Part shown: positions 5,477-64,000 of the stretch, piece after piece
Numbering within the stretch: the first letter of the stretch is position 1
How the letters are laid out: each line of letters opens with the position of its first letter
Source: a virus
Length of the DNA stretch: 64,000 nucleotides
IMG/VR virus record: IMGVR_UViG_3300043446_003158
Coordinates: 113,188-177,187 of that record
Strand: one strand, 5' to 3'
Translations under genes and position numbers: made by a program
Notes under the pieces: model-generated
Seen by the model: the letters and a program-made list of their open reading frames with translations, nothing else
Databases searched by the model: none
Told to the model about the DNA's origin: nothing

Positions 5477-5496
5477 GGGTTTGTTGCGTATGGACC

Positions 5497-5554
5497 CATA
5501 ATACAAAAAAAGAGGGTGGTAAAACCCTCCAGTGTGCCAGTTTGAAAAGTGGTC
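5497..5554 (-). promoter_or_regulatory. Early-type promoter with hairpin and upstream pseudo-palindrome
   Basis: Minus-strand TATTAT -10-like box near 5497; GAGGGT/ACCCTC stem; motif TGTGCCAGTTTGAAAAGTGGTC at 5533-5554. Confidence 0.55.
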
Positions 5555-5563
5555 CCAATATTT

Positions 5564-6520
5564 TTACATAAAGTTTTTTCTACCACCATGAGCAGCCATT
5601 ACTGAAGCAATTGCTTGGCGAGAAACTTCTCTACGTCTCTCATCAGCGGCTTTACGTTCAGCATCACTCATGGGTTTTGCTGGTTTTTGTGGTTTTGTAG
5701 ATCCTCTACCAGCACCAACTCCACCTCTCTCAAGTCTTCTATCATTTGCTCTATCAGACTCTTCCTCACTAATCATAATATTTTGTTTCCATTCTCTACT
5801 CATGTTTTCTAGAATTGCAAGTGCTGCTTCTTCAGTATCTGCATAACCTTCATCAATTAAATATGCCATAATATACTCATCATTTAAACCTTTCCTTGCT
5901 ACATGACCAGCAAGTTTAGCAGCACCAGATGCTCCCTTTCCAACTTCTTTTGCAACTCCACCAACATGCCCTGCTGCTTTTTTAATAGTTTTTCCAGTTT
6001 CTTTTGCAGCATTCATAGCAGCATTATGTCTTGCAATTCCTCTATTAATTGCACCAGCAACACGATCTAATACACCTGGTTTTTTAGGCTGTTTCTTTGC
6101 AGCAGCAGAAACGGCAGATTGTCTCTGTAAAGATGCCTTCATTCCTGATGGTTTTGCTGCAGATGCTTTTGATTCTGCATCTCTTCTTGCTGCCTTTTGA
6201 GCACGAAGTCTTTCAAGAGACTTACCAGTTGGTTTACCAGATTTGAACTTTTGCCCCTTTGCAGTCACAGGTTCAATTCTAGTACCACCTGCTCTTGCCT
6301 CACTCAAAACATATTCTTCAGCAATATCATAAACAAACTCGGTAAATTCTTCATCACCAAGTTCTTCAATCAAAATATCAATACCTTCTTCGTTTAAACC
6401 CATCTCATAGAAATATTGTGCAGCAATTTCTACTTCTTCTGAAAATTCTTGCGTTACATCTTCCTGGGCATATACATTTTCATATGCCTCAAATAAGGAT
6501 TGCATTTCCGTTGCTTTCAT
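5564..6520 (-). CDS. Hypothetical late protein with acidic ends and an Ala/Lys-rich middle
   Basis: 318-aa ORF with two related YFYEMGLNEEG / YLIDEGYADTEE segments; TATAAATA upstream. Confidence 0.7.
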   Translation of the reverse strand: MKATEMQSLFEAYENVYAQEDVTQEFSEEVEIAAQYFYEMGLNEEGIDILIEELGDEEFTEFVYDIAEEYVLSEARAGGTRIEPVTAKGQKFKSGKPTGKSLERLRAQKAARRDAESKASAAKPSGMKASLQRQSAVSAAAKKQPKKPGVLDRVAGAINRGIARHNAAMNAAKETGKTIKKAAGHVGGVAKEVGKGASGAAKLAGHVARKGLNDEYIMAYLIDEGYADTEEAALAILENMSREWKQNIMISEEESDRANDRRLERGGVGAGRGSTKPQKPAKPMSDAERKAADERRREVSRQAIASVMAAHGGRKNFM

Positions 6521-6541
6521 TTTTATAAAAACGTTTTTAGT

Positions 6542-6933: not shown

Positions 6934-7722
6934 TTAGGTTACGGCCCAGTCTATGACCGTGCGAATTTGTTGGTTGTAAGACCATACAGACTTTAGCATA
7001 TCAGCATCCACTCCGTGGGTTTCCATTTGAACTATGAGGGAATTCAGATCTTTAGGGAAGCAGGTGCCACCAAATCCACGATCATTATCAAATCCAGGAA
7101 CTTGAGTATGAGATTGCCCAATTCTACTATCGGAAGTTACACCAGAACACACCGTATCATAATTCATCCCTACTGCTTCGCAGAGATCATACATTTTATT
7201 AAAGTATGCAACCTTCAGTGCTAGGAAACTATTGGCAAAATATTTAATTGCCTCACTTTCATCAGAAGTAGTTATAACACTTGGAATTTCTGGAAATATA
7301 GTTTTAAAGAAATTTACAAATTGCTGACAAATATTTTTGTCTCCACCAACAACATTTCTTTCAGAATTTCTAAAATCCTCAACAGCATTTCTTGCAGTTA
7401 AAAATTCTGGATTATGAATAACTTTATATTTTTTAGAATATTTTTTAGTAGTTCCAATAGGTACAGTTGATTTAATTACAAAAATACCATCAACAGTTTT
7501 TGGAAGATCTTTAAAAAAATTATCTAAAATTGAAAGATCACATTCTCCAGTACTTTTCATGGGAGTGGGGAGACAAACAAAAATAAATGCTTGTCTTAAA
7601 ACTTCATCTAATGTATTGAAAGATTTATTTTTATCTACATCAAAAACTTTACAAGTTACTTTATCTCTTAAATTTTGATATACTGCATTTCCAACAAATC
7701 CATTTCCAATAATTCCAATCAT
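6934..7722 (-). CDS. ugd: UDP-glucose/GDP-mannose 6-dehydrogenase family protein (lacks the C-terminal domain)
   Basis: Rossmann GNGFVG, FICLPTP, IKSTVPIGT, HNPEFL, KYFANSFLA and the catalytic GFGGTCFPKD; only 262 aa. Confidence 0.8.
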   Translation of the reverse strand: MIGIIGNGFVGNAVYQNLRDKVTCKVFDVDKNKSFNTLDEVLRQAFIFVCLPTPMKSTGECDLSILDNFFKDLPKTVDGIFVIKSTVPIGTTKKYSKKYKVIHNPEFLTARNAVEDFRNSERNVVGGDKNICQQFVNFFKTIFPEIPSVITTSDESEAIKYFANSFLALKVAYFNKMYDLCEAVGMNYDTVCSGVTSDSRIGQSHTQVPGFDNDRGFGGTCFPKDLNSLIVQMETHGVDADMLKSVWSYNQQIRTVIDWAVT

Positions 7723-9431
7723 ACACTAATCCTACTAAATCCTTTTACTTTATCAAATTTTATCACATTTTCAAATTTATCGTGCAAATCTGTTTTATGA
7801 GAGATCACAAAGATATTAGCATCTTTGATCACATAACGGATAATCTTAAGAAACTCATCAGTTCCGAATCCATCAAGCGATGAATCAAAGACCTCATCCA
7901 TAATCAGCAGATTGGTATTGACGGAGTTTTTGACTCGGGCGACTTCTCTCCAAGTGAAGAGAAGGGCAAGGTCGATTCTCATTTTCTCACCCTCACTAAA
8001 GGAACTATAAGAAAAGTCTTCGTGAATGGGTGATTTTACTGTTTCATTAAATTCTTCATCCAGATGAAAATTAATATAAAAGTCCATCATCTGAAGATAA
8101 CGATTCACCTGCTGATTTATGAACGGAAGATACTTCTTAATGATCTTCGTTTTAACGCCATCGTCCTTGAGTAAGGAATAGGCAAAATCGTAATAAACGA
8201 TTTTTTGTTTTTTGTTTGAAAGGTCTTCTATTGTGTTTTGGAGATTAGTTTGAAATTCTTCTAGCTTCTCATGTTCAGTATTTCTGTTTGCAAGGTTTTT
8301 GGTAATAGTTTGAATTTCAGATTCAAGTTCTCGTATTTGTCTCTGGTTGAGTGAAATGCGAGTATTGTTTTGAGAAATCTCATGGTTGAGTTTTGTAATC
8401 TCCTTGGAAAGAACTGTAAATTGACGCTCTCGTTCTTTTTCTAATTCTATTGCCTCCTCAAGTTCTTGAAAACCTTTCTGGAGTTCCTTTGCTTTATTTT
8501 GAGCATCTACAATTCTATTTAACCGAAATTCTTCTTCTATAGTTTGAGTGCAAGTAGGGCATACCGTATTTTCAGTAAAAAACTTATGCTCTTTGGTAAT
8601 AGTAAATACTTTTTGAGATAATTTCCCCTTTAAATTGTTAAGCTTTACTAACTTTTCTTCTGCACCAATAACTTCTTCTTGCTCTTTAATGTACTTAAAA
8701 ATACTTTCTTCAATAACAGAATTATCTGTCATATAAACACCAACTTCATTATCTAAATTGGCAATCTTTTCTTTATTGGCATTTATATTGGCATTTCCAC
8801 GATTCTCAAGTTCTTCAATAAAATCTTGTTGCATTTTAATTTTGTCTTTAAAATTTTCTTTTGCAACATTTAAAGATTTAATTTCATCCTTTTGAGCACG
8901 AATTTTATCTTTGACAATATTATTCATCGCAGAAAAAATACGAATATCTAAAAGATCTTCAATTACCTCACGTCGATTTGCAGAAGTCAACTGCATAAAA
9001 GGAACAAATGCACTACTTCCCAAAATTACAATCTGGGTAAAAGATTTATAATTTACTTTAAGAATATTCTCTTCAAGAATTCTTTGATTAGCACGATCAT
9101 CCGCTTCTTTGTGAAGAGGTTGACCATTTACTTCAATATCAAAAACATTTGGTTTAATTCCACGGCGAACCAAATAATCTCTACCATTAACAGAAAATTC
9201 AATTTCAACTAAACAATCTTTTTCGTTTACAGTATTGACTAACTGTGGTTTATTAATTTTACGAAAAGGTTTATTAAAAAGAACAAACGTAAGAGCATCA
9301 AGGATTGTAGACTTTCCTGCTCCGTTTGTTCCAATAATTAAATTTGTATTGTTTGATTCTAAATTAACTTCAGTAAATTGATTTCCAGTTGAAAGAAAAT
9401 TTTTCCACTTGATTTTATGAAATACTAACAT
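7719..9431 (-). CDS. gp46: Recombination endonuclease ATPase subunit gp46 (SbcC/Rad50-like)
   Basis: Walker A GTNGAGKST, CPTC zinc hook, FSEGEKMRIDLA signature, LLIMDEVFD. Confidence 0.95.
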   Translation of the reverse strand: MLVFHKIKWKNFLSTGNQFTEVNLESNNTNLIIGTNGAGKSTILDALTFVLFNKPFRKINKPQLVNTVNEKDCLVEIEFSVNGRDYLVRRGIKPNVFDIEVNGQPLHKEADDRANQRILEENILKVNYKSFTQIVILGSSAFVPFMQLTSANRREVIEDLLDIRIFSAMNNIVKDKIRAQKDEIKSLNVAKENFKDKIKMQQDFIEELENRGNANINANKEKIANLDNEVGVYMTDNSVIEESIFKYIKEQEEVIGAEEKLVKLNNLKGKLSQKVFTITKEHKFFTENTVCPTCTQTIEEEFRLNRIVDAQNKAKELQKGFQELEEAIELEKERERQFTVLSKEITKLNHEISQNNTRISLNQRQIRELESEIQTITKNLANRNTEHEKLEEFQTNLQNTIEDLSNKKQKIVYYDFAYSLLKDDGVKTKIIKKYLPFINQQVNRYLQMMDFYINFHLDEEFNETVKSPIHEDFSYSSFSEGEKMRIDLALLFTWREVARVKNSVNTNLLIMDEVFDSSLDGFGTDEFLKIIRYVIKDANIFVISHKTDLHDKFENVIKFDKVKGFSRISV

Positions 9432-56220: not shown

Positions 56221-56981
56221 CAAATAACTCTTGTTTTTTCGTGACCGACTCGTACACGTGGATCGCACCAAATTTCAAAGCCTGCTTCCTTTGCATCCAA
56301 ACAGAAACTGACATCTTCTCCACACATGTCTTGAACATCACCAGATTCAAAAACTTGCATCTTTGGAGCAAACCAAGGATATTTCATATCCGAATGCTCA
56401 AATACACCGTGCTTAATCAGCAACCAACCAAATCCAGTATAATCAACTGTAAATGGTTTGCGGCGCTTGGAGATTGTTTCAAGAGTTTCATGATTCATAA
56501 CTCCACCATTACTGCGGAAATCTTCTTCATCTAACCAGTGTGCAACGGAAGTAGTCATGCCGTCTTCGGTACAATACCAACCTGCTGCAATATCTTTATC
56601 CATCAAAACCAATTGTAAAAACTTTTCAGTGTTGAATACAATATCAGAGTCAATCCAAAGTTGATAATCATAATTAAGTTTTCCGTCCCAAGGAAGTTGA
56701 TCAGGTCCACGAAGAACGTTTGCCCCCAAACACTTACAGCGGGCAAAATTTACCATGGAACTGTAATCTTGAGAAATTTGAATACTTGCCCCGTTCTGCA
56801 CGAGGTCGAAGCACATTTGAATAAAACTCTTTAGAAATGTATACGAACAACCTCTTCCAGGTAAGCAAAAAACGATTGATTTTCCACGAATCATTTCTTT
56901 TGCTTTTTCAAAATCAAACTCTGGATCGGCTGAACTTGTGGCAACTGGTGCCTTTGCTTTTACGGTAAATCCTTTAGCCAT
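56220..56981 (-). CDS. GT-A fold glycosyltransferase-like protein
   Basis: ARCKCL, YDYQLWIDSDIVF (DxD), TGFGWLLIK, GEDVSFC, GHEK. Confidence 0.75.
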   Translation of the reverse strand: MAKGFTVKAKAPVATSSADPEFDFEKAKEMIRGKSIVFCLPGRGCSYTFLKSFIQMCFDLVQNGASIQISQDYSSMVNFARCKCLGANVLRGPDQLPWDGKLNYDYQLWIDSDIVFNTEKFLQLVLMDKDIAAGWYCTEDGMTTSVAHWLDEEDFRSNGGVMNHETLETISKRRKPFTVDYTGFGWLLIKHGVFEHSDMKYPWFAPKMQVFESGDVQDMCGEDVSFCLDAKEAGFEIWCDPRVRVGHEKTRVI

Positions 56982-57004
56982 AATAGGAATAATTTTACTT
57001 CAGT

Positions 57005-57033
57005 ATCATACAGTATTATGTATAAAATGTCAA
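57005..57033 (-). promoter_or_regulatory. Sigma70-type promoter TTGACA-17-TATGAT
   Basis: -35 at 57028-57033 contains the TGA stop of the upstream ORF; -10 at 57005-57010. Confidence 0.65.
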
Positions 57034-57203
57034 TTTTTGTTCTCTTTCAGAACTATTTCATCTCCGTCGACTTTTAATTTTATCTCAGTATCTTCGTACC
57101 ATGAAAATTCATTTACCACCCATTCAGGAATTGTAATATAATACTCACCACTTACTGGATCTACTTGCAATAGCTGGCAGCTTTCTTCAAAGTTCTTCTT
57201 CAT
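57030..57203 (-). CDS. AbrB/MazE-fold-like small protein (57 aa)
   Basis: Hand translation MKKNFEESCQLLQVDPVSGEYYITIPEWVVNEFSWYEDTEIKLKVDGDEIVLKENKN; the ITIP...W....I...DG..IVL pattern fits a swapped-hairpin fold. Confidence 0.6.
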   Translation of the reverse strand: MKKNFEESCQLLQVDPVSGEYYITIPEWVVNEFSWYEDTEIKLKVDGDEIVLKENKN

Positions 57204-57423
57204 TCCATTCTTGTTTTGTATTTTGTTTTATATAGTATATTTTGAAATTATAATCGACCTGTGGGGCGAATTTTTATGGGGGAAATTTTTTTAGGTTCAG
57301 AGAATTATAAGTCTCATTTGGGTAACACTTTATAGATTGAGGGATCCATCGTTTTTATAAACCACGCGCCCCGCCATCACGATACCGTTATACCATAATA
57401 CTGTGATTTTGCACGAACGAACA

Positions 57424-57444
57424 GGGGGGCGTGTGCCGCCCCCC
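57424..57444 (-). terminator. GC-rich stem-loop closing the early array
   Basis: GGGGGGCG-TGTGC-CGCCCCCC, 6 nt after the stop of the last array ORF. Confidence 0.6.
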
Positions 57445-57450
57445 GAACTG

Positions 57451-57642
57451 TCACTGCACGTCGCCCAGGGCGCTGTTCGTGGTGCTCATGCGGGTGCCGC
57501 GTGAACCAGCAGCGCCGCCATGGGTGCGAACGCGGGTGCTGCCGCCCTTGATCTGATTTGCCCAGCGGTTGGCACGGGTGCCATGGGCAACGGGCAGGCG
57601 GGTGATCGTGAACTGGATGCCGTCGATGGTGGTGGTGGTCAT
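57451..57642 (-). CDS. Array ORF1, basic 63-aa protein
   Basis: Has its own promoter module directly upstream; TGA stop. Confidence 0.7.
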   Translation of the reverse strand: MTTTTIDGIQFTITRLPVAHGTRANRWANQIKGGSTRVRTHGGAAGSRGTRMSTTNSALGDVQ

Positions 57643-57710
57643 CGGGTGTGGTGCGGTTTGCTCTGGAATTCTACAGGGTCAGGGGGCAGGGGTCAACCCA
57701 CCCCCTGTAG
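57643..57710 (-). promoter_or_regulatory. Promoter-stem-loop module P1 (type A)
   Basis: TTGACC (57691-57696)-17-TAGAAT (57668-57673); G/C inverted repeat around the -35; leader TCCAGAGCAAACCGCACCACACCCG-ATG. Confidence 0.85.
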
Positions 57711-57712
57711 GA

Positions 57713-57973
57713 TCAGATGCCTGCCATCGCGGCAACCAGGCGATCACGCTTGCGGATCGCGGTGGGCACGATGAACCAGAGGTCACGCTTGCCGCTGTCG
57801 GAGCGGGTGGCATCCAGGGTGCCGCCCTTCTCCATGTCAACCATGAGGGCGTGGATGGTGCCCTTATGGCGGCGGGGGTCCATGCCCATGGCGCGAACCA
57901 GGTCGCTGCAGGTCATCGGGCCGTCGTTGATCAGGCGGGTGCGGATCGCGGTGCGGATGATGGAGGTCAGCAT
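57713..57973 (-). CDS. Array ORF2, winged-helix-like protein (86 aa)
   Basis: Start reassigned to 57973 from the module geometry; GPMTCSDLVRAMG...TIHALMVDMEKGGTL...DLWF resembles a wHTH. Confidence 0.65.
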   Translation of the reverse strand: MLTSIIRTAIRTRLINDGPMTCSDLVRAMGMDPRRHKGTIHALMVDMEKGGTLDATRSDSGKRDLWFIVPTAIRKRDRLVAAMAGI

Positions 57974-58036
57974 CGGGTGCGTTGCGGTTTGCTCTGGAAT
58001 TCTACAGGGTGGGCGGGGCACCCGTCAAGGTGCCCC
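57974..58036 (-). promoter_or_regulatory. Module P2 (type A)
   Basis: TTGACG (58023-58028)-18-TAGAAT (57999-58004); the -35 is in the loop of GGGGCAC/GTGCCCC. Confidence 0.85.
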
Positions 58037-58043
58037 ATAGGGG

Positions 58044-58268
58044 TCAGTACCCCAACCAGGAGAGGAACTCACCGCAGTCGATGCGCTCACCCTGCAGGTG
58101 CCCGTACTCCTTGCGGAAGTCGTAGAGGCAGGAGTGCATCTCTGCAGACTCCAGGGCGATGTGCCAGGCGATGGTGTCGTCGGCGGGGTGAGAGCAATCC
58201 CACAGAATGTCGGAGAAGGTGGTGCCAGGGGCGTACACGTTGAGGCAGTCGCGGAGGGCGGTGGTCAT
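58044..58268 (-). CDS. Array ORF3, 74-aa hypothetical protein
   Basis: ATG follows the module leader; TGA stop. Confidence 0.7.
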   Translation of the reverse strand: MTTALRDCLNVYAPGTTFSDILWDCSHPADDTIAWHIALESAEMHSCLYDFRKEYGHLQGERIDCGEFLSWLGY

Positions 58269-58327
58269 CGGGTGCGATGCGTTTGCTCTGGAATTCTACA
58301 GGATGGGGGGTCGTTTGCCAACCCCCC
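58269..58327 (-). promoter_or_regulatory. Module P3 (type A)
   Basis: TTGGCA (58316-58321)-17-TAGAAT (58293-58298); G6/C6 stem with the -35 in the loop. Confidence 0.8.
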
Positions 58328-58334
58328 TGGGGGG

Positions 58335-58553
58335 TCAGATCTGCTCTGCCATCTGCTGCTCCATCTGCTCACGGATCATGGCACGGATGGCGAAGGCGCT
58401 CTCACGGATGCTGCGGCAGGAGTCGGCACTCAGGTCATTCTCACCAGCGCGGGCGGCCTCCTCATTCTCAAACCAGCGGATGCCTGCGTCGATCAGGGCA
58501 TGGCAGATCTCATCAGCGATGGCAGGGGTCACGGTCAGGGTGAGGGTGGTCAT
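58335..58553 (-). CDS. Array ORF4, 72-aa helical protein
   Basis: MTTLTLTVTPAIADEICHAL...; start set from the module geometry. Confidence 0.7.
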   Translation of the reverse strand: MTTLTLTVTPAIADEICHALIDAGIRWFENEEAARAGENDLSADSCRSIRESAFAIRAMIREQMEQQMAEQI

Positions 58554-58613
58554 CGGGTGTGGTGCGGTTTGCTTGAGAATTCTACAGGATGAAGGGGAGG
58601 GGGTCAACCCCTC
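58554..58613 (-). promoter_or_regulatory. Module P4 (type A)
   Basis: TTGACC (58602-58607)-17-TAGAAT (58579-58584); GAGGGG/CCCCTC stem. Confidence 0.85.
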
Positions 58614-58809
58614 ACACCCGCGTCACGGTCAGGCGCTTCCATCCTTCGATGCGGTAGTAGCGGATCTCCTCCAGGATGGAGTTGACCACGTTGTTGTGCT
58701 GGCGGTCAAACCCCTTGGGCGTGGTGGGACGGCGGCGGCGGCGGTACTCTACGGCAGTAGTGCCATCGGCACGGTCCAGTTCGATGCGGTAGAGGCAGGT
58801 GCTGGTCAT
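58612..58809 (-). CDS. Array ORF5, 65-aa Arg-rich protein
   Basis: MTSTCLYRIELDRADGTTAVEYRRRRRPTT...; start set from the module geometry. Confidence 0.7.
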   Translation of the reverse strand: MTSTCLYRIELDRADGTTAVEYRRRRRPTTPKGFDRQHNNVVNSILEEIRYYRIEGWKRLTVTRV

Positions 58810-58870
58810 CGGGTCCGTTGCGGTTTGCTCTGGAATTCTACAGGGTCGGCGGTGGGAGGTCAACCCTCCC
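58810..58870 (-). promoter_or_regulatory. Module P5 (type A)
   Basis: TTGACC (58858-58863)-17-TAGAAT (58835-58840); GGGAGG/CCTCCC stem. Confidence 0.85.
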
Positions 58871-59039
58871 AGGTCACCACGTCGGCGGCGTAGTGTTCGG
58901 CATACCGTGCTGCCCACCAGTACCCCTCAGCAGGGTTGATCTGTCCAGCGAAGCGATCCTGGGGGGCATCGTCAGTCTTACGGGTCACCCACATGGTTTC
59001 GCGGGTCTGCAGGTCGGAGCACTGGGAGAAGATTGCCAT
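58860..59039 (-). CDS. Array ORF6, 59-aa protein (not in the ORF track)
   Basis: Hand translation MAIFSQCSDLQTRETMWVTRKTDDAPQDRFAGQINPAEGYWWAARYAEHYAADVVTWEG; its TGA lies inside the -35 of P5. Confidence 0.7.
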   Translation of the reverse strand: MAIFSQCSDLQTRETMWVTRKTDDAPQDRFAGQINPAEGYWWAARYAEHYAADVVTWEG

Positions 59040-59075
59040 GGGTGCGGTTGCGGTTGCTTGGGTAGTGTAGCAGGT
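59040..59075 (-). promoter_or_regulatory. Module P6 (type B, extended -10)
   Basis: TGC-TACACT (59064-59069); leader ACCCAAGCAACCGCAACCGCACCC-ATG. Confidence 0.7.
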
Positions 59076-59245
59076 CAGCGGCGCTCACCGCACCAGGCGG
59101 GGTCGGCGGTGCAGAGGGCGTCTGCCATGCGCTCCTGGTGAGCGTCAACGGTTGCCGCGGCCTTCAGGGTCCAGGCACCTGCCACGATGCTCACAGAGCA
59201 GAAGAGCATGGCAGCGATGGCATTGTGGAGAGTGCGGTCGGTCAT
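59075..59245 (-). CDS. Array ORF7, 56-aa membrane-anchored protein with a C-terminal Cys pair
   Basis: Hand translation MTDRTLHNAIAAMLFCSVSIVAGAWTLKAAATVDAHQERMADALCTADPAWCGERR. Confidence 0.7.
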   Translation of the reverse strand: MTDRTLHNAIAAMLFCSVSIVAGAWTLKAAATVDAHQERMADALCTADPAWCGERR

Positions 59246-59280
59246 GGTGGGGTTGCGGTTGCTTGGGTAGTGTAGCAGGT
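59246..59280 (-). promoter_or_regulatory. Module P7 (type B)
   Basis: Shares GGTTGCGGTTGCTTGGGTAGTGTAGCAGGTCAG with P6; TACACT at 59269-59274. Confidence 0.7.
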
Positions 59281-59465
59281 CAGAAGCGAACTGCCCAGTT
59301 CGGGTCGGTCAGGCAGTTGATCCAGGCGCACCAGTTGCCGTTGGTGCTCACGCAGAACAGGTCATTGCCCTGGCGCTGCTCAACCACCACCACGGGGTCG
59401 CCTGCCATCTGGTTTGCCAGGCGGTTCTTTGCCTTGGCGGAGATGGGGGTCAGGGTCACGGTCAT
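59280..59465 (-). CDS. Array ORF8, 61-aa hypothetical protein
   Basis: In the ORF track; ATG follows module P8. Confidence 0.7.
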   Translation of the reverse strand: MTVTLTPISAKAKNRLANQMAGDPVVVVEQRQGNDLFCVSTNGNWCAWINCLTDPNWAVRF

Positions 59466-59524
59466 CGGTCGGTTGCGGTTGAGAGAATTCTAGTCTATGG
59501 ATGGGGAGGGGGTCAACCCTCCCC
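59466..59524 (-). promoter_or_regulatory. Module P8 (type A)
   Basis: TTGACC (59511-59516)-18-TAGAAT (59487-59492); the -35 is exactly the loop of GGGGAGGG/CCCTCCCC. Confidence 0.85.
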
Positions 59525-59531
59525 GTAGGGG

Positions 59532-59696
59532 TCACCAGAGCAGGTCAGCGATTGCTTCCAGGCGCTGCTGGCGGGATGCCAGTTCCTTGAGGATTGCCCG
59601 CTGCTCCTTGGCGGTGGGGTTTCCTTCCCACAACCACTCCTCCAGTTGAAAGGAGGTCAGGTCGTCAAAGGCGGTGGCGATGGTTCCGTCCAGCAT
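59532..59696 (-). CDS. Array ORF9, 54-aa protein
   Basis: MLDGTIATAFDDLTSFQLEEWLWEG...; start set from the module geometry. Confidence 0.7.
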   Translation of the reverse strand: MLDGTIATAFDDLTSFQLEEWLWEGNPTAKEQRAILKELASRQQRLEAIADLLW

Positions 59697-59758
59697 GGGG
59701 TCGGTTGCGGTTTGCTCTGGAATTCTACAGGGTGAAGGGGAGGGCGTCAACCCTCCCC
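59697..59758 (-). promoter_or_regulatory. Module P9 (type A)
   Basis: TTGACG (59745-59750)-17-TAGAAT (59722-59727); the -35 is exactly the loop of GGGGAGGG/CCCTCCCC. Confidence 0.85.
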
Positions 59759-59765
59759 ATAGGGG

Positions 59766-59990
59766 TCAAACGGCAACCCAGTAGGATTTGCCGTTGCTCT
59801 CCTGCTGCTCTGCCATGATGTAGTCGGCGCTGCCATAGGCGCTGCGCCATCCCTGGACCTGGTAGTAGCAGTCCTCCAGGGTGGTGGCGTAGGCAAGGGT
59901 GCGGGCGATCTTACCGCCCTTCACGAACGCCACCGCGAACGGGTAGCGGGTGGGGGAGAGGATCGTCTGCAGGGGGGTGGGGTCGGTCAT
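59766..59990 (-). CDS. Array ORF10, 74-aa protein
   Basis: MTDPTPLQTILSPTRYPFAVAF...; start set from the module geometry. Confidence 0.7.
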   Translation of the reverse strand: MTDPTPLQTILSPTRYPFAVAFVKGGKIARTLAYATTLEDCYYQVQGWRSAYGSADYIMAEQQESNGKSYWVAV

Positions 59991-60068
59991 CGGTTCGGGT
60001 GGTGAACTTCGATCAGTATAGCAGGTCAGGAGGCAAAGGGGAGGGGGTGTGCCCCTCCGCTGTGCCAC
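59991..60068 (-). promoter_or_regulatory. Module P10 (type C)
   Basis: TGC-TATACT (60015-60020) followed by GATC; GGAGGGG/CCCCTCC stem; TGTGCCAC motif at 60061. Confidence 0.7.
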
Positions 60069-60090
60069 CTAGCGGGTGGGCGCAGCGTGA

Positions 60091-60240
60091 TCAGAAGTCG
60101 ATGGCATCAAGTGTAGGGTCTGCGCCATACTCATCACATTCGTCAACACTATCCCCCAGAACAAGAGTGTCAAGAATTTGCAGGATTTGTTCGCCGTTGT
60201 TACCAGAGCGGAGGAGAGAAAGCGCAAGGTCGCGGGTCAT
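60091..60240 (-). CDS. Array ORF11, 49-aa acidic protein
   Basis: Hand translation MTRDLALSLLRSGNNGEQILQILDTLVLGDSVDECDEYGADPTLDAIDF. Confidence 0.65.
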   Translation of the reverse strand: MTRDLALSLLRSGNNGEQILQILDTLVLGDSVDECDEYGADPTLDAIDF

Positions 60241-60298
60241 CGTAGAGTTTGCAATTGGGTGTAATTGGGTGTCTTTATGGGCGCACCCGTTCCCTGTA

Positions 60299-60460
60299 TC
60301 ATCGCTCTAGTTGTGCCAGCGATGAGGGGGCGATGTGAGAAGGCGAACCGCAGGAGCGGTAGAACTCTACCATGCGATCTGCCTCCTCCTTGGTTGTGAA
60401 CCACTGGGAGCGCCACTCACACTGGTTGTAGGGGGTCTGATAGCGAACTTCGAAGCGCAT
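60299..60460 (-). CDS. Array ORF12, 53-aa protein
   Basis: Hand translation MRFEVRYQTPYNQCEWRSQWFTTKEEADRMVEFYRSCGSPSHIAPSSLAQLER. Confidence 0.7.
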   Translation of the reverse strand: MRFEVRYQTPYNQCEWRSQWFTTKEEADRMVEFYRSCGSPSHIAPSSLAQLER

Positions 60461-60517
60461 GGGGTTGGTTGCGAACTTGATCAGTGTAGCATGGCGGAGG
60501 GGGTGCTGGGCACCCCC
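60461..60517 (-). promoter_or_regulatory. Module P12 (type C)
   Basis: TGC-TACACT (60483-60488)-GATC; GGGGGTGC/GCACCCCC stem at the -35 position. Confidence 0.75.
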
Positions 60518-60524
60518 GTGAGAT

Positions 60525-60791
60525 TCAGAAGTCGAACACGTCGCCGTTGATCTCTGCTCGGTTGATCTCTGGATCGTTCCACATCACACCGTCAGGGGTT
60601 TGAGTGCTGCCGTGATCATAGAACGCTTCCAGCAGTTCTTCATAGCAGCAAACGTCATTCTGCTGAATGAAGTCTTGGATGCTTTCGTCATTCTCAATCC
60701 ACAGAACAACGTTCCAGGTTTTGTAGTTTGTCCACCCGTTGTAGGTAACATCCAGCAGGTTGGTCTGGTGAGTGCGGGTTGCGGTTGCCAT
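60525..60791 (-). CDS. Array ORF13, 88-aa acidic protein with YNGWTNY.TWNV.LW motif
   Basis: In the ORF track; ATG follows module P13. Confidence 0.75.
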   Translation of the reverse strand: MATATRTHQTNLLDVTYNGWTNYKTWNVVLWIENDESIQDFIQQNDVCCYEELLEAFYDHGSTQTPDGVMWNDPEINRAEINGDVFDF

Positions 60792-60857
60792 GGGGTTGGT
60801 TGCGAACTTGATCAGTGTAGCACGGGAAGGGGGGCAGGAGCGCCCCCCAGGGCGCTC
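60792..60857 (-). promoter_or_regulatory. Module P13 (type C)
   Basis: First 33 nt upstream of the ATG are identical to P12; TACACT at 60814-60819; alternative stems G6/C6 and GAGCGCCC/GGGCGCTC. Confidence 0.75.
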
Positions 60858-61032
60858 AGATGGCGCTGGTGCCCTTGCTCACCCACAGTGCCAGGCGCAT
60901 GGTGCCTGCCTTGCTCACCTGCTGGGCGGTGCGCCCCTGGGCGATGGCAGCAGTCTTCAGGGAGTTGCGGTGAGCATCGGCACCGCACACCATCACGTCA
61001 CGTGCTTGCTGGAGGAGTTGCTGCTGGGTCAT
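60856..61032 (-). CDS. Array ORF14, 58-aa protein
   Basis: Hand translation MTQQQLLQQARDVMVCGADAHRNSLKTAAIAQGRTAQQVSKAGTMRLALWVSKGTSAI. Confidence 0.7.
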   Translation of the reverse strand: MTQQQLLQQARDVMVCGADAHRNSLKTAAIAQGRTAQQVSKAGTMRLALWVSKGTSAI

Positions 61033-61095
61033 GGTTGGTTCAGGTGTTGAACGTGTTCAGTATAGCATGGGGGTGGGGCACCCACACGGTGCCCC
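61033..61095 (-). promoter_or_regulatory. Module P14 (type C)
   Basis: TGC-TATACT (61059-61064); GGGGCAC/GTGCCCC stem whose loop lies 17 nt from the -10. Confidence 0.75.
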
Positions 61096-61102
61096 TGGGA
61101 GA

Positions 61103-61276
61103 TCAGGCAGTGATCTCCATCCACTCCTGCTCGTCGCGGTAGATCACCACGGGAGCACCACCGAGTTCGATGCTCCAGTCGAAGGCAACGTCCACGGCGT
61201 GCTCTTCGCTGGTGAAGAACTCTGCGTGATCCATGCCAGTGCCCTTGGGGGCGGCGCTCCAGGAAACGAAGGTCAT
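61103..61276 (-). CDS. Array ORF15, 57-aa acidic protein
   Basis: Hand translation MTFVSWSAAPKGTGMDHAEFFTSEEHAVDVAFDWSIELGGAPVVIYRDEQEWMEITA. Confidence 0.7.
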   Translation of the reverse strand: MTFVSWSAAPKGTGMDHAEFFTSEEHAVDVAFDWSIELGGAPVVIYRDEQEWMEITA

Positions 61277-61335
61277 CGGGTTCGGGCGTTGAACTTGATC
61301 AGTGTAGCACGGAAAGGGGGGCGTTGGTGCCCCCC
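61277..61335 (-). promoter_or_regulatory. Module P15 (type C)
   Basis: TGC-TACACT (61301-61306)-GATC; GGGGGGC/GCCCCCC stem. Confidence 0.75.
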
Positions 61336-61342
61336 GTAGGGT

Positions 61343-61567
61343 TCACACGGTGGCAGGCACCTGGGTGAGTTGATCGCCACGAATAGCGAGGTTGATGAAC
61401 TTACCCACGGAGTCTTCGTTTTCGATCACCAGGTTGAGATCGGCAACGAAACCAGCAGGATCAGTCACGTTGTAGGTGTAGTCACGCCCACCGTTGAAAG
61501 TAACAGTCACTTGACCGTTCTGCACCTCGGAGATGTTTTCGATGGCGCTGGATTGAAACTTGAACAT
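61343..61567 (-). CDS. Array ORF16, KTSC-domain-like protein (74 aa)
   Basis: FQSSAIENI...VTVTFNGGRDYTYNV...SVGKFIN..IR follows the KTSC pattern SS.I......L.V.F..G..Y.Y..V...S.G.F.N..I(K/R). Confidence 0.6.
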   Translation of the reverse strand: MFKFQSSAIENISEVQNGQVTVTFNGGRDYTYNVTDPAGFVADLNLVIENEDSVGKFINLAIRGDQLTQVPATV

Positions 61568-61637
61568 AATTAAGAAAAAAAGTAAAGGGTTGAGTGAAGT
61601 GTTTTGAGCGGGATGCTTCACCCCCGCTGATGTGATC

Positions 61638-61694
61638 AGTATGGCACGGATTGGGGGTGGGGTCAACCCCCTTGTGCCACTTGTCAGACTGTCA
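61638..61694 (-). promoter_or_regulatory. Module P16 with upstream pseudo-palindrome
   Basis: TTGACC (61661-61666)-17-CATACT (61638-61643)-GATC; GGGG/CCCC stem around TCAA; TGTGCCACTTGTCAGACTGTCA at 61673-61694. Confidence 0.7.
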
Positions 61695-61884
61695 CATCAG
61701 GAAGTGTAGAGAGCGTGGTGATACGGTTCAACTCATTTAGTGTGTCCACATTCCAGTTGTTTGTATCACCATAAGGAGGATACAGTTTGCTATACCATTC
61801 CCCATACAGTTCGGGGTTGATGTGTTGAACTTGCTCTAAAGTTTCAGCAATCTTAACAAGCATGGGGTGTTGATTAGTCATCAT
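61684..61884 (-). CDS. Array ORF17, 66-aa protein
   Basis: In the ORF track; ATGA overlap with the upstream ORF. Confidence 0.65.
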   Translation of the reverse strand: MMTNQHPMLVKIAETLEQVQHINPELYGEWYSKLYPPYGDTNNWNVDTLNELNRITTLSTLPDVTV

Positions 61885-62054
61885 TCCTCCAACAGTTCGG
61901 GGTAGTATTCTTCACACTCAGTGATCAATTCTTCGTCACTGTATTTGGCGTAACCTTCGTCCAGGTAGTCATAACATAGTTGAGTCATTGTCTTGAGATC
62001 CATGTCATCCAGCATCTGCTGAATGAGAGCATCTTGGAGTGCAGAACGGTTCAT
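61881..62054 (-). CDS. Array ORF18, 57-aa acidic helical protein
   Basis: Hand translation MNRSALQDALIQQMLDDMDLKTMTQLCYDYLDEGYAKYSDEELITECEEYYPELLEE (16 D/E, 3 K/R). Confidence 0.7.
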   Translation of the reverse strand: MNRSALQDALIQQMLDDMDLKTMTQLCYDYLDEGYAKYSDEELITECEEYYPELLEE

Positions 62055-62056
62055 GA

Positions 62057-62236
62057 TCAGAAACGAATGATAGGGTGGTCAAGATCGAGGACATCACATT
62101 CCTCGGTGGCAAACACTAACTCTACACCGTGTTGCCATACATCATCGGGTTCATCTTCAGAGCAAATGGCAACATCCTGGTTGAGTTGTTCTTCGGTGAG
62201 TTGTTGCAGTTGTTGCAGGAGTTCTTTGTAAGTCAT
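62057..62236 (-). CDS. Array ORF19, 59-aa acidic protein
   Basis: MTYKELLQQLQQLTEEQLNQDV... (15 D/E, 2 K/R); ATGA overlap with the upstream ORF. Confidence 0.7.
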   Translation of the reverse strand: MTYKELLQQLQQLTEEQLNQDVAICSEDEPDDVWQHGVELVFATEECDVLDLDHPIIRF

Positions 62237-62439
62237 GTCAGAACGTGGCGAAAGTCCAGGGATTTGATGCACCAACCAGTGGCACATGTGATCTCTTCAA
62301 CTAGATCGTCCTCATCATCTGCCTCCCAAATTGTACCTAGAACCTCATCGTAGATTTCATCTTGAGATTCAACATCAAGTGCCTCATCATCAAGATCATC
62401 AGTGAAATCAAACTCAATTTCAGTAACTTGGAATTGCAT
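62233..62439 (-). CDS. Array ORF20, 68-aa very acidic protein
   Basis: 23 D/E versus 2 K/R; WEADDEDDLVEEITCATGWCI. Confidence 0.75.
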   Translation of the reverse strand: MQFQVTEIEFDFTDDLDDEALDVESQDEIYDEVLGTIWEADDEDDLVEEITCATGWCIKSLDFRHVLT

Positions 62440-62585
62440 CAGACCTCATCACGCATTTCAGTGAGTTTGTCATACAGAAGCGGAATGTCCGCCTCTGTAA
62501 GTTCAGTCAGGTAGTGCCAATCGCTACTCTCAAGAATAGCGAGCAGGGCATCAATTTCCTGATAGTTGAGGTGTGTGAGTGTCAC
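62439..62585 (-). CDS. Array ORF21, 48-aa acidic protein (GTG start)
   Basis: Hand translation MTLTHLNYQEIDALLAILESSDWHYLTELTEADIPLLYDKLTEMRDEV; GTGA overlap with the upstream ORF. Confidence 0.65.
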   Translation of the reverse strand: MTLTHLNYQEIDALLAILESSDWHYLTELTEADIPLLYDKLTEMRDEV

Positions 62586-62710
62586 TTGCGTAGAGGAGAA
62601 TTGTAGTAGCGGCGGAAAGCAGTGAGAACGATAATGCCCGTCGAAACAACACCAACCAAACCAAGGAAGGTGACAGCATCGCCAGAGAATGTGTAGGTAT
62701 CAGGTGTCAT
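62582..62710 (-). CDS. Array ORF22, 42-aa single-pass membrane protein
   Basis: Hand translation MTPDTYTFSGDAVTFLGLVGVVSTGIIVLTAFRRYYNSPLRK. Confidence 0.7.
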   Translation of the reverse strand: MTPDTYTFSGDAVTFLGLVGVVSTGIIVLTAFRRYYNSPLRK

Positions 62711-62838
62711 CAGTAGTCGTAGTTGGAGTTCAGAAACTGGTTGAAGGTTTGCTCATCGGTGTCATCTTCCTCGTAAAGATCTTCCATGTCGAAGATCTCA
62801 CCAGGAGCATCTTGGATCTCAAAGAAGTAGGTGTCCAT
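62710..62838 (-). CDS. Array ORF23, 42-aa acidic peptide
   Basis: Hand translation MDTYFFEIQDAPGEIFDMEDLYEEDDTDEQTFNQFLNSNYDY (14 D/E, no K/R). Confidence 0.7.
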   Translation of the reverse strand: MDTYFFEIQDAPGEIFDMEDLYEEDDTDEQTFNQFLNSNYDY

Positions 62839-62861
62839 GGAGGTGTTTCAGGAACAAACGT

Positions 62862-62919
62862 AGTTTGGCATGGGTGAGGGGGGTTCACAACCCCCCGTGT
62901 GCCACTTGCTCAACTGTCC
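62862..62919 (-). promoter_or_regulatory. Module P23 with upstream pseudo-palindrome
   Basis: TTGTGA (62885-62890)-17-CAAACT (62862-62867); -35 in the loop of a G6/C6 stem; TGTGCCACTTGCTCAACTGTCC at 62898-62919. Confidence 0.6.
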
Positions 62920-63242
62920 AGGGCACCCTGCTCGTTGAGCACACCCCAGGCGATGCCAGAGTTGTACAAACCGATGTAACGGTTCTTGATGCTCAACCCA
63001 ACGATTTCATCGCCAGGTTCACCAATCATGTTCACACCGAAGTAGAAGTATTCGGTGAGGAATTGAGGCGTTTGGAACTTCATGGTTTGGAACTTCTCCC
63101 AGAGAAGAGTAGCAATCACGGCAACGATTGCCGCAACAGTGAGAACAAAACTCCGCACATCTTGGTAGAGTTTCTGATAGTCAACCTCTGCCAGAAAGGC
63201 AATCAGGTCATCAGTGGGGGGGAAGGATTTGGTGAGGTTCAT
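62910..63242 (-). CDS. Array ORF24, 110-aa protein with one predicted TM helix
   Basis: Hydrophobic stretch FVLTVAAIVAVIATLLW. Confidence 0.7.
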   Translation of the reverse strand: MNLTKSFPPTDDLIAFLAEVDYQKLYQDVRSFVLTVAAIVAVIATLLWEKFQTMKFQTPQFLTEYFYFGVNMIGEPGDEIVGLSIKNRYIGLYNSGIAWGVLNEQGALDS

Positions 63243-63295
63243 GTCAAGAATTGTGGGGTTGGGGGAATGTAGAGAGGTGTCCCAACCACGAGATC

Positions 63296-63324
63296 AGTAT
63301 GGCACACCAGGGGCACCACCGCAA
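63296..63324 (-). promoter_or_regulatory. Promoter P24
   Basis: TTGCGG (63319-63324)-17-CATACT (63296-63301)-GATC. Confidence 0.5.
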
Positions 63325-63393
63325 GGGGTTGAAACATTCCGTAACATCAGGGCATCTTATCAGACTCATCAGGTATTCTAATGTGCCAGGGGC

Positions 63394-63445
63394 TTGACAC
63401 ATCTTGTAATCTTGACTAGAATACCTTTGCTAGGTTTGAAGATGA
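63394..63445 (+). promoter_or_regulatory. Plus-strand sigma70 promoter; duplicate of the element upstream of gp55
   Basis: TTGACA (63394-63399)-17-TAGAAT (63417-63422)-ACCTTTGCTAGGTTTGAAGATGA. Confidence 0.65.
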
Positions 63446-63712
63446 TAATATAAGTCTTTATAATATACTTTAAAGAGATGCCGAAGGCATACCCCGAAGG
63501 GGTATGAGTTGATATACTATAAGCACGTCAGATGGTGTGGGAAGGGGTGAGTGGGGTGAAGCACGATTCTTGCACTATATTATAAGAATTGATTTTGTTG
63601 CAAAGAAAAAAGGCAGGGTCACCACTCCCTGCCTTCAGATCTCCACTCACCTATGTGTAAAAATATATCCACCTCGTGCATGTATGGGTGGCGATTGTCT
63701 CAAACCACCCAA

Positions 63713-63797
63713 TAGGAGTAGGGAGACTTGAACTCCCACGGGCGTTATGCCCAACAGATTTTAAGTCTGGTGTGTCTACCGATTCCACCATACTCCC
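63713..63797 (-). tRNA. trnL: tRNA-Leu, anticodon UAA (CCA not encoded)
   Basis: GGGAGTATGGTGGAATCGGTAGACACACCAGAC-TTAAAA-TCTGTTGGGCATAACGCCCGTGGGAGTTCAAGTCTCCCTACTCCTA: cloverleaf with long variable arm, TTC T-loop and A discriminator. Confidence 0.95.
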
Positions 63798-63806
63798 ATG
63801 TTGTAT

Positions 63807-63867
63807 AGTATATGATACATTATGTGTGATGTCAAGTGCTTGACAATCTCGTAATGTATGATATACT
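63807..63867. promoter_or_regulatory. Back-to-back divergent sigma70 promoters
   Basis: Minus: TTGACA (63830-63835)-17-TATACT (63807-63812), driving the tRNA. Plus: TTGACA (63840-63845)-16-TGn-TATACT (63862-63867). Confidence 0.75.
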
Positions 63868-63937
63868 ATGTGTATGATCTCGTAGAGATGTGTATAAGAT
63901 ACGTGTGCATCTCGTACACATCTCGCACGATCTCGTA
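63846..63937. repeat. Five ATCTCG(T/C)A direct repeats
   Basis: Copies start at 63846, 63877, 63909, 63920 and 63930. Confidence 0.7.
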
Positions 63938-63939
63938 CC

Positions 63940-63999
63940 TTACCAGGCGTTAGAGAACACGAATCCGTCTACGAATTCGTAGTCATAACGCAATCCCTG
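63940..63999 (-). CDS. C-terminus of a gene entering from the right edge
   Basis: Frame reads ...QGLRYDYEFVDGFVFSNAW-stop. Confidence 0.5.
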   Translation of the reverse strand, partial: QGLRYDYEFVDGFVFSNAW

Positions 64000-64000
64000 A

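Follow-up and report, generated by a model that had tools for sequence, protein, structure and literature searches.

A GC-rich array of small genes separated by promoter and stem-loop modules in a T4-like cyanomyovirus

The GC-rich island and its intergenic modules

The window (the whole stretch of DNA analysed, 64,000 nucleotides) comes from a T4-like cyanomyovirus with a genome of 177 kb and about 33% GC. The genome carries the T4-like core genes gp23, gp20, gp18, gp17 and gp6, as well as gp46-like and CobS-like genes; the capsid protein is 74-79% identical to its cyanomyovirus counterparts. An SbcC-like gene lies at 7719-9431. Positions 57400-63350 form an island of 52-63% GC, compared with about 33% for the genome, containing about 24 small ORFan genes. 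All the genes and modules of the island lie on the minus strand, and its sense strand is rich in C and A. The island proteins belong to no family or only to families of unknown function, and no phage homologues were found for them.

The usual intergenic module consists of a TGA stop codon, 7 nt, a hairpin formed by a G-run and a C-run, a -10 box, a leader without Shine-Dalgarno sequence and an ATG, in this order. The individual sites are as follows.

63296-63335, minus strand: TGcCATACT, the predicted promoter that opens the array, -10 box 63301-63296; neither an upstream gene nor a G/C hairpin, fold of only -5.4 kcal/mol
62878-62896, minus strand: hairpin GGGGGGTT-gtg-AACCCCCC containing TTGTGA; -10 box CAAACT at 62867-62862
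61653-61671, minus strand: hairpin GGGGG-TTGA-CCCC(A)CCCCC inside an outer repeat TGGCAC/GTGCCA; -35 TTGACC at 61666-61661, -10 box CATACT at 61643-61638
61316-61335, minus strand: hairpin of 7 bp with a 6-nt loop, starting 7 nt past the TGA at 61345-61343; no -35, extended -10 TGcTACACT with -10 box 61306-61301
61075-61095, minus strand: hairpin GGGGCACC/GGTGCCCC; no -35, -10 box TATACT at 61064-61059
60829-60848, minus strand: hairpin GGGGGGC/GCCCCCC; no -35, -10 box TACACT at 60819-60814; overlapped by an alternative repeat (60838-60857) that the relatives do not conserve
60499-60517, minus strand: hairpin GGGGGTGC-cca-GCACCCCC; no -35, -10 box TACACT at 60488-60483
60040-60058, minus strand: hairpin GGAGGGG/CCCCTCC, a positional outlier with a more distant -10 box TATACT at 60020-60015
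59737-59758, minus strand: hairpin of 8 bp, GGGGAGGG-TTGACG-CCCTCCCC, whose loop is exactly the -35; -10 box TAGAAT at 59727-59722
59503-59524, minus strand: hairpin of 8 bp, the -35 TTGACC making up its entire loop; -10 box TAGAAT at 59492-59487
59264-59282, minus strand: promoter without hairpin, TGA stop codon abutting the extended -10 TGcTACACT, -10 box 59274-59269; second copy at 59077-59064
58853-58871, minus strand: hairpin TGGGAGG/CCTCCCA; -10 box at 58840-58835; the stop codon of the upstream gene is the TGA within the -35 TTGAcc, so that the 5' arm is coding
58597-58613, minus strand: hairpin GAGGGG-ttgac-CCCCTC, 5' arm overlapping the stop codon 58614-58612; -10 box at 58584-58579
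58305-58327, minus strand: hairpin GGGGGGUUG/CGACCCCCC, one of its internal pairs being U·G; -35 TTGGCA, -10 box at 58298-58293
58015-58036, minus strand: hairpin GGGGCACC/GGTGCCCC around the -35 TTGACG; -10 box at 58004-57999
57680-57707, minus strand: hairpin CAGGGGGUGGG/CCUGCCCCCUG enclosing the -35 TTGACC, imperfect and including U·G and G·U pairs in tandem; -10 box at 57673-57668
57412-57444, minus strand: array-terminal hairpin GGGGGGCG/CGCCCCCC with the T-rich tail TGTTCGTTCGTG, 6 nt past the last stop codon; no promoter follows, and its appearance is that of a terminator-like end of the array

On the basis of consensus matches only, the island has 27 promoter-like sites, against 4.9±2.6 in shuffled sequences. 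Seven of the predicted promoters have the form TTGACN-17/18-TAGAAT; a second class, with an extended -10 (TGnTAnACT) and no -35, keeps the hairpin at the same place. From these motifs we infer both promoter activity and early timing, the modules being predicted host SigA/sigma-70-type early promoters.

The sequence-only reading of this DNA had placed the -35 hexamer in the hairpin loops, which is confirmed. The loop is exactly the hexamer at 59737-59758 and 59503-59524, and the hexamer lies in or across the loop at 62878-62896 (TTGTGA), 61653-61671, 58853-58871, 58597-58613, 58305-58327 (TTGGCA), 58015-58036 and 57680-57707. The same reading had noted that modules devoid of a -35 retain the hairpin position, as is indeed seen at 61316-61335, 61075-61095, 60829-60848 and 60499-60517: the loop centre lies 20.0±2.4 nt upstream of the -10 box in the extended -10 class and 20.4±1.2 nt in the TAGAAT class, and hairpin starts are spread from -29 to -32 relative to this box. 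Such a constant distance in modules without any -35 could point to a role at the level of the promoter, or the modules may simply have inherited a fixed length from a common ancestor. Hairpins and promoters are separable; the array-terminal hairpin has no promoter, and the first and two internal promoters have no hairpin.

Covariation and strand bias of the hairpins

Perfect inverted repeats (stem of at least 7 bp, loop of 3-10 nt) are abundant in region 57400-63400: 17 were counted, compared with 2.8±1.7 (maximum 7) in 100 dinucleotide shuffles. Twelve are located wholly in the non-coding part, which represents 23% of the region, and two straddle stop codons. Over the entire 177 kb genome, 12 of the 14 G/C-rich hairpins fall in the 6-kb island. 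The hairpins are stable (-16 to -22 kcal/mol) and 18 to 31 nt long overall, mostly 19-25 nt, with variable stem sequence, stem length and loop length. The z scores of single hairpins are only -1.6 to -3.2, so the signal is collective rather than carried by each hairpin. In an Rfam search of 56500-64000 (E<=1), a tRNA was the sole match, and the hairpins correspond to no curated covariance model.

The covariation analysis covered 40 distinct modules, taken from the window and from IMG/VR relatives. Paired cells amount to 88.9% (72.2±1.5% in shuffles), and 47 double-sided changes are found in the stems (14.7±4.2 in shuffles). The covariation score is 0.381 against 0.124, a value reached by 0 of 500 shuffles, with slid controls at 0.19 or less; these shuffle counts are not probabilities, since the modules share descent. 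The covariation of the stems noticed in the sequence-only reading is confirmed.

The deviations from perfect pairing are strongly strand-biased. Stems contain 38 G·U pairs (22 of them internal) in the sense orientation and one in the antisense, perhaps representing only 6-7 independent events because many of these pairs stem from related hairpin families. Counted by fixed alignment columns, there are 19 sense and two antisense G·U pairs. This bias goes against the base composition, as the sense strand is rich in C and A. The more stable fold is the sense one in 34 hairpins and the antisense one in 11 (Wilcoxon p=1e-4). The position relative to the upstream gene is also constrained: of 72 modules, 40 have precisely 7 nt between stop codon and hairpin and 51 have 6-8 nt, and the spacers show 22 different sequences. 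The sequences indicate that selection acts on the sense-strand RNA of the hairpins.

Few hairpin tails are T-rich. At least four T in 8 nt are present in 5 of the 49 unique tails, and tail positions 2-6 are 53-65% C, in agreement with the earlier observation that U-tracts are lacking; they are absent although the promoter spacer has room for one. Terminators of the phage outside the array do carry U-tracts. A terminator scan flagged no internal array hairpin, only the array-terminal one (57444-57424). The T-rich tails of the latter and of the terminators elsewhere suggest that U-tracts are used where a full stop is expected.

Gene shuffling and interpretation of the modules

Gene order and content vary among at least 20 related IMG/VR arrays, whose proteins are 75-100% identical. 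One and the same gene end is found joined to different hairpins and to different downstream genes, A-type hairpins are fused to B-type -10 boxes, and chimeric hairpins are joined within the loop. Even among module pairs sharing both flanking genes, the hairpin differs in 13 of 17. Hairpins co-travel with the upstream gene in 33% of pairs and with the downstream gene in 18%, a difference that is not significant (p=0.17). This shuffling of genes and hairpins is probably the result of recombination.

The modules of this T4-like cyanomyovirus are probably cassettes of the PeSL type (promoter-early stem-loop), with the hairpin serving the upstream gene as a 3' element of its RNA. Each module would overlay two separable elements, the 3' RNA stem-loop of the upstream cistron and the promoter of the next gene. 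The stem-loop would form in read-through transcripts started at upstream promoters, and its location 7 nt past the stop codon may be the nearest position that a terminating ribosome permits. Its role is most likely that of a barrier against 3' exonucleases and a weak attenuator or insulator, not a full intrinsic terminator. The next gene would be driven by its host SigA/sigma-70-type early promoter, with either -35 and -10 boxes or an extended -10. The -35 would lie in the loop because a promoter leaves only two sequence-free parts to the arms, one upstream of the -35 and the other in the 17-nt spacer; the looped hexamer would be free of pairing constraint while stems drift with compensation. 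The conserved modules may double as short homologies for exchanging single-gene cassettes and hairpins, both between and within phage genomes.

It is unlikely, in our opinion, that the hairpins are true, efficient U-tract-free terminators for the host RNA polymerase, making each gene its own insulated transcription unit. Such a role would fit their stability and their location, since termination directly before the next promoter would keep the latter from being occluded. The PeSL211/210 stem-loop (phi1/RB49) cut lacZ expression in E. coli about as much as the very strong terminator rrnB T1 (PMC2839356). Cyanobacteria lack Rho. Of the transcription units of S. elongatus, 22% have a defined end that lacks a U-tract, and 46% of these ends are structured (PMC12642595). 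However, the array tails are C-rich though the promoter spacer could be T-rich, unlike those of the array-terminal hairpin and of the phage terminators elsewhere, and termination strength in S. elongatus follows the U-tract, a weaker one giving more readthrough (PMC12642595). It also seems distinctly unlikely that the hairpins are real stop or insulator signals without U-tract for the RNA polymerase of Rho-less cyanobacteria, with the -35 placement coupling the arrival of read-through polymerase to the firing of the next promoter and the palindromes possibly doubling as hairpin targets that drive cassette exchange. If this were true, the array would offer a compact natural model of the non-canonical termination that S. 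elongatus was recently reported to use.

The remaining explanations place the function in DNA. The sequence-only reading had proposed supercoil-extruded cruciforms gating the -35, as in N4, or sites for a dimeric or structure-specific regulator; cruciforms or regulator-bound palindromes at the -35 would then switch all the array promoters together. In either promoter class the loop centre keeps a distance of about 20 nt from the -10 box, on its upstream side, and the -35 hexamer lies in the loop; both facts are compatible with this idea. N4 provides a precedent for short promoter hairpins that function in DNA: its early promoters depend on the phage's own virion RNA polymerase and on a DNA hairpin whose sequence is conserved. 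A DNA palindrome should nevertheless give strand-symmetric mismatches, whereas the 38:1 asymmetry between G·U and A·C is in favour of the mRNA strand alone. Stems can be bulged or chimeric, hairpins and promoters occur apart, and the variable stem length, loop length and sequence leave no fixed protein site; with hairpins of 18 to 31 nt, G4/C4 half-sites would change helical phase. No single-subunit, phage-type RNA polymerase was found in the phage, a weak negative as the control genomes likewise gave no match. A DNA-level switch is consequently very improbable.

Equally hard to believe is that the palindromes have no role in expression and are recombinogenic or selfish DNA, for example targets of an SbcCD-like gp46/47 nuclease, spread by gene conversion. 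The exchange of hairpins relative to both flanking genes (13 of 17 pairs) and the SbcC-like gene would agree with this, as would the chimeric hairpins joined in the loop, a type of joint also described for RB49 mini-circles (PMC2839356). However, pairing is kept by compensatory changes, mismatches are biased to the RNA strand and the stop-codon spacing is strict despite varied spacer sequences, which together argue for selection on transcript structure and not on DNA homology alone. Of the earlier proposals, neither the cruciform nor the regulator site is supported, and the 3' stabilising loop for the upstream mRNA gives the best fit, in view of the 7-nt spacing, the sense G·U bias, the hairpin past the last gene and the absence of one before the first promoter.

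Comparison with known systems

Like intrinsic terminators, the array hairpins are stable, GC-rich and located shortly past a stop codon, and the array-terminal copy (57412-57444) fits this description; the internal ones differ by the absence of the U-tract, a defining feature of Rho-independent terminators. The REP hairpins of E. coli are also intergenic and GC-rich, and without U-tracts they do not terminate transcription but stabilize the upstream mRNA, protecting its 3' end from 3' exonucleases (summarized in PMC12642595). In contrast to REP, with which they have no sequence relation, the array hairpins are phage-borne, fused to promoters and restricted to one array; the array motif has no exact match among 185,579 bacterial and archaeal genomes. 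A short hairpin inside the promoter region is shared with the N4 early promoters, whereas the array promoters are host-type, no phage RNA polymerase was found and selection appears to be on the RNA strand.

PeSLs are known from the T4-like phages RB49/phi1, T4/PST and KVP40/nt-1 (Arbiol et al. 2010, PMC2839356; Comeau et al. 2014, PMC4122927). They combine sigma-70-like promoters with stems of the form G(n)-loop-C(n), which can overlap the -35; they lie after the stop codon of one ORFan and before the start codon of the next, and recombine inside the loop. The one cyanophage paper found to discuss PeSLs reports that S-PM2 lacks dense PeSLs (PMC4503421), and we found no description of a PeSL-type array at such density for cyanophages in the literature searched. 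The sequence-only reading had recognized neither the PeSL parallel (PMC2839356, PMC4122927) nor the gene shuffling at the modules.

Several features distinguish the present array from the published PeSLs. Its host is a cyanobacterium, it lies wholly in a 52-63% GC island of a 33% GC genome, its hairpins have no U-tracts and its modules have neither an AT-rich upstream region nor a Shine-Dalgarno sequence. The -35 in the loop is dominant here, whereas the commonest phi1 arrangement has the stem-loop between the boxes or over the -10. The 7-nt stop spacing and the RNA-strand G·U bias were not found reported in the passages on PeSLs that were consulted. Terminator activity and mini-circles are described for the published PeSLs; in the present array the stem-loops may attenuate or terminate upstream transcription, and recombination between neighbouring cassettes may excise mini-circles, for which the chimeric loop-joined hairpins are indirect support.

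The likeness to the published PeSLs concerns the whole organization. In both cases a T4-like myovirus has, in a plastic region, repeated cassettes separating the stop codon of one small ORFan from the start codon of the next; a sigma-70-like promoter is combined with a G(n)-loop-C(n) stem-loop, which overlaps the -35 in one PeSL subclass; recombinant joints occur within the loop; and the cassettes mark where close relatives differ by single genes inserted, deleted, replaced or displaced. The array matches this known kind and calls for no new promoter mechanism.

A GC-rich gene array and its modules

The viral record is 177,187 bp long, and the window is its final 64 kb. Its T4-type core genes are those for the major head, portal, sheath, large terminase and baseplate wedge, together with an SbcC-like nuclease and a CobS-like gene; the capsid protein is 74–79% identical to cyanomyovirus capsid proteins. 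The GC content is 52–63% at 57.4–63.4 kb of the window, compared with about 33% genome-wide. This island is an array of 24 small ORFs (42–110 aa, GC3 up to 0.89), all on the minus strand and mostly ORFans. The genes at 62838–61684 overlap one another and have no modules between them. An assembly chimera can be ruled out as the source of the island, because the same GC-rich arrays are found within AT-rich flanks in several independent IMG/VR contigs; the island may reflect a host-like base composition of the earliest genes. The array appears as a host-like GC island of putative early ORFans inside an AT-rich phage, and these ORFans are natural candidates for host-takeover functions.

A typical module, read on the minus strand, consists of a TGA stop codon, 7 nt, a G-run/C-run hairpin of 6–9 bp, a further 6–13 nt, a -10 box, a CA-rich leader lacking a Shine–Dalgarno sequence (at 59694–57640, for example AGAGCAAACCGCAACGCACCCG-ATG) and the ATG. 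There are 27 promoter-like sites in the array against 4.9 ± 2.6 in shuffled sequences; these are consensus matches, with predicted activity, and fall into three classes.

Promoters and terminators of the array and related elements in the window
63835–63807, minus strand: consensus promoter of the tRNA-Leu(TAA) gene
63712–63798, minus strand: tRNA-Leu(TAA) gene, just upstream of the array
63636–63609, minus strand: U-tract terminator of the tRNA-Leu gene, with a T-rich tail
61345–59988, minus strand: class B promoter, extended -10 TGcTA(C/T)ACT without a -35, five copies with a hairpin
59282 and 59077, minus strand: two class B copies without a hairpin
59768 to 57640, minus strand: class A promoter, TTGAC(C/G), spacer of 17–18 nt, TAGAAT, leader TCCAGAGCAAACCGCA…, seven copies
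Minus strand: class C promoter, TGcCA(T/A)ACT with the outer repeat TGGCAC/GTGCCA
3075–3096, minus strand: canonical terminator, AGGGGGCA/TGCCCCCT then UUUUGCUUGUAU

The outer inverted repeat TGGCAC…GTGCCA surrounds the G/C hairpin at 62912–62836 and 61686–61565, and the extended -10 box TGcCATACT forms its 3' half; among related loci it is intact in L001, L014 and L020 but disrupted in L013 and L031. A further perfect repeat of 8 bp, GGAGATCA…TGATCTCC at 61098–61118, spans the stop of a gene that ends at 61103, directly upstream of the main hairpin, and is also found in L020. A near-consensus promoter (TTGACA-17-TAGAAT) is predicted on the plus strand at 63394–63422, directed away from the array. 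No obvious ORF is present 3' of it, only a small structured stretch at about 63480–63500, and it may drive a small RNA.

The only Rfam match in the array region is the tRNA, and a known RNA family was therefore rejected. The 22-nt promoter/leader motif was found at 31 IMG/VR loci. An exact-match search of 185,579 bacterial and archaeal genomes gave no cellular hit, and an origin of the promoter in the host was likewise rejected on this ground.

Conservation and exchange of the hairpins

There are 17 perfect inverted repeats of at least 7 bp in the array, compared with 2.8 ± 1.7 in dinucleotide shuffles, and 12 perfect repeats lie wholly within the non-coding part, which makes up 23% of the array. 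Genome-wide, 12 of the 14 G/C-rich hairpins are located in the island. The folding scores of single hairpins are modest (z = -1.6 to -3.2) since shuffled G/C-run sequences also fold well, and the case for the hairpins rests on their number, placement and covariation.

The window and the 31 IMG/VR loci yield 103 distinct modules between them; in 72, the hairpin folds at -13 kcal/mol or lower. In class A, the middle of the loop is 20.4 ± 1.2 nt from the -10 box on its upstream side; in class B the distance is 20.0 ± 2.4 nt. Covariation was analysed after aligning 40 distinct modules of class A.

Covariation in 40 distinct class A modules
Cells paired: 88.9% observed; 72.2 ± 1.5% shuffled
Double-sided changes: 47 observed; 14.7 ± 4.2 shuffled
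Covariation score: 0.381 observed; 0.124 shuffled (observed value reached in 0 of 500)

Covariation in slid controls does not exceed 0.19, and the inner four stem pairs occur as CG, AU, GC and GU. The sequence-only reading had proposed hairpins centred on the -35 whose stems differ while pairing is preserved; the hairpins are real, and compensatory pairing is kept across homologous modules of the window and its IMG/VR relatives. An alternative anti-hairpin switch was rejected: the overlapping repeat at 60838–60857 is not conserved in relatives, and competitors from the C-rich spacer are limited to 4 bp.

Related arrays encoding proteins 75–100% identical differ in gene presence and order, with many gains and losses besides changes of order (g16 after g19, g20 after g22, g11 and g12 swapped, g18 before g17; g numbers denote array genes). 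For the gene end …LTDPNWAVRF there are three different downstream hairpins, the downstream gene MLDGTIATAF… is preceded by at least four different genes and hairpins, and in L020 window hairpins of one gene are found behind another. The gene that ends on the TGA of TTGAcc has five different 3' arms, some of them non-complementary; these are joints in the loop. These patterns describe a reshuffling of single-gene cassettes among uncultured cyanophages, probably from freshwater or estuaries.

Related modules are present in the cultured cyanophage S-SZBM1 (OL473597) at 2784–2865 and 6447–6532, offering a bench route to test these ideas. In one, a GGGGGC/GCCCCC hairpin precedes CTGACCCTGTAGGAT; in the other, the hairpin contains TTGACA and its U-tract extends into the -10 box. 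Phage DSL-LC02 (OR032571) shares some genes with the array but was rejected as a carrier, having a different promoter module without a G/C hairpin. Its region 4908–6242 contains a repeated module, …AAATCCGCCGA.CCCC…TGTATT.TTAAAGAGTCAAAG…, between small genes, some of which are homologous to window genes.

The hairpin as a probable 3' element of the upstream gene

Among 51 distinct hairpins, there are 38 G·U pairs (22 internal) in the fold of the mRNA strand and one in that of the opposite strand, many of the 38 coming from related hairpins and representing maybe only six or seven independent events. Folding is more stable in the sense orientation for 34 hairpins and in the antisense for 11, and fixed alignment columns contain 19 G·U-type against two A·C-type cells. 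The sense strand is C- and A-rich, so composition alone would favour the opposite bias. Since a cruciform or a double-stranded operator is indifferent to the strand of a G·T, selection acts on the transcript. Two earlier proposals, supercoiling-extruded cruciforms and a site for a phage regulator, find no support, and the third, a stabilising 3' loop for the upstream mRNA, is supported by the strand bias, the spacing from the stop codon and the separability of hairpin and promoter.

Taking the nearest stop codon before each hairpin, TGA is used in 65 of 70 modules. In 40 of 72 modules exactly 7 nt separate the stop from the first paired base, and in 51 the distance is 6–8 nt, across 22 different spacer sequences; relative to the -10 box, hairpin starts are spread evenly from -29 to -32. 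The last array gene is followed, 6 nt past its stop, by a hairpin (57412–57444), and no promoter lies beyond it; a search for orthologues of this hairpin gave one relative only. The first array promoter, with no gene before it, has no G/C hairpin in the window, nor is one present in two of the three relatives, and two internal promoters adjoin the stop codon directly, without a hairpin. The hairpin can thus occur without the promoter and the promoter without the hairpin, and the hairpin behaves like a 3'-end element of the cistron before it. Hairpins are shared with the upstream gene in 33% of pairs and with the downstream gene in 18%, a non-significant difference (p = 0.17). The mRNA entry/helicase site of the ribosome lies about 11–13 nt from the first P-site base, and 7 nt would be roughly the shortest distance at which a helix stays folded when the stop codon occupies the A site. 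Stop-codon readthrough or recoding stimulated by a hairpin 7 nt after UGA was rejected, the next ATG being in frame with the stop in only 4 of 17 modules, about as expected by chance.

A helix that overlaps a promoter is confined to the parts without sequence constraint, which are the region before the -35 and the 17-nt spacer, and the -35 then comes to lie within the loop or across it. There the hexamer escapes the pairing constraint while the stems drift with compensation, a simple reason for its position. Class B hairpins occupy the same place in a module of equal overall length (39–42 nt from stop codon to -10 box). Mixed modules in the related loci L028 and L001, with an A-type hairpin and TTGAC fused to a B-type -10 box, indicate that common descent and exchange of parts explain the position common to both classes.

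The main rival to a stabilising role is efficient termination. One phi1/RB49 stem-loop of the promoter-early stem-loop (PeSL) type reduced lacZ expression in E. coli about as much as a very strong terminator (PMC2839356). However, as the sequence-only reading had noted, the array hairpins are not followed by U-tracts: at least four T occur within 8 nt after the stem in only 5 of 49 distinct tails, and tail positions 2–6 are 53–65% C. These positions lie in the sequence-free promoter spacer, so there was room for a U-tract. The phage does place T-rich tails where a full stop is expected, namely at the array end, in the tRNA-Leu terminator (63636–63609) and at 3075–3096, one of the two G/C-rich hairpins outside the island. 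In S. elongatus, stronger U-tracts give less readthrough, and the REP elements of E. coli, GC hairpins without U-tracts, stabilize 3' ends and do not terminate transcription (PMC12642595). On these grounds we favour an exonuclease barrier combined with weak attenuation as the probable role of the hairpins, over efficient termination.

Comparison with promoter-early stem-loop cassettes

The array modules match the PeSLs known from T4-like phages in a number of respects. Both are composite cassettes of a sigma-70-like promoter and a G(n)-loop-C(n) stem-loop, located between ORFans in hyperplastic regions, and both are associated with indels and with recombination in the loop, which for the array is deduced from the joints. 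Five PeSL subclasses are distinguished by stem-loop position, one of them over the -35 (PMC2839356; PMC4122927). The array differs in its host group (cyanobacterial), in being a GC island, in lacking an AT-rich upstream region, a Shine–Dalgarno sequence and a U-tract, and in the dominance of the -35-in-loop layout. The sole cyanophage paper found on PeSLs reports that dense PeSLs are absent from S-PM2 (PMC4503421), and such cassettes are not mentioned in the S-SZBM1 paper or in a survey of 16 cyanomyovirus genomes. The array is a further member of the already known PeSL class and extends cassettes of this type to cyanomyoviruses. What it adds, relative to the portions of the PeSL literature available, is sequence evidence for a stem-loop selected as coding-strand RNA and placed relative to the stop codon.
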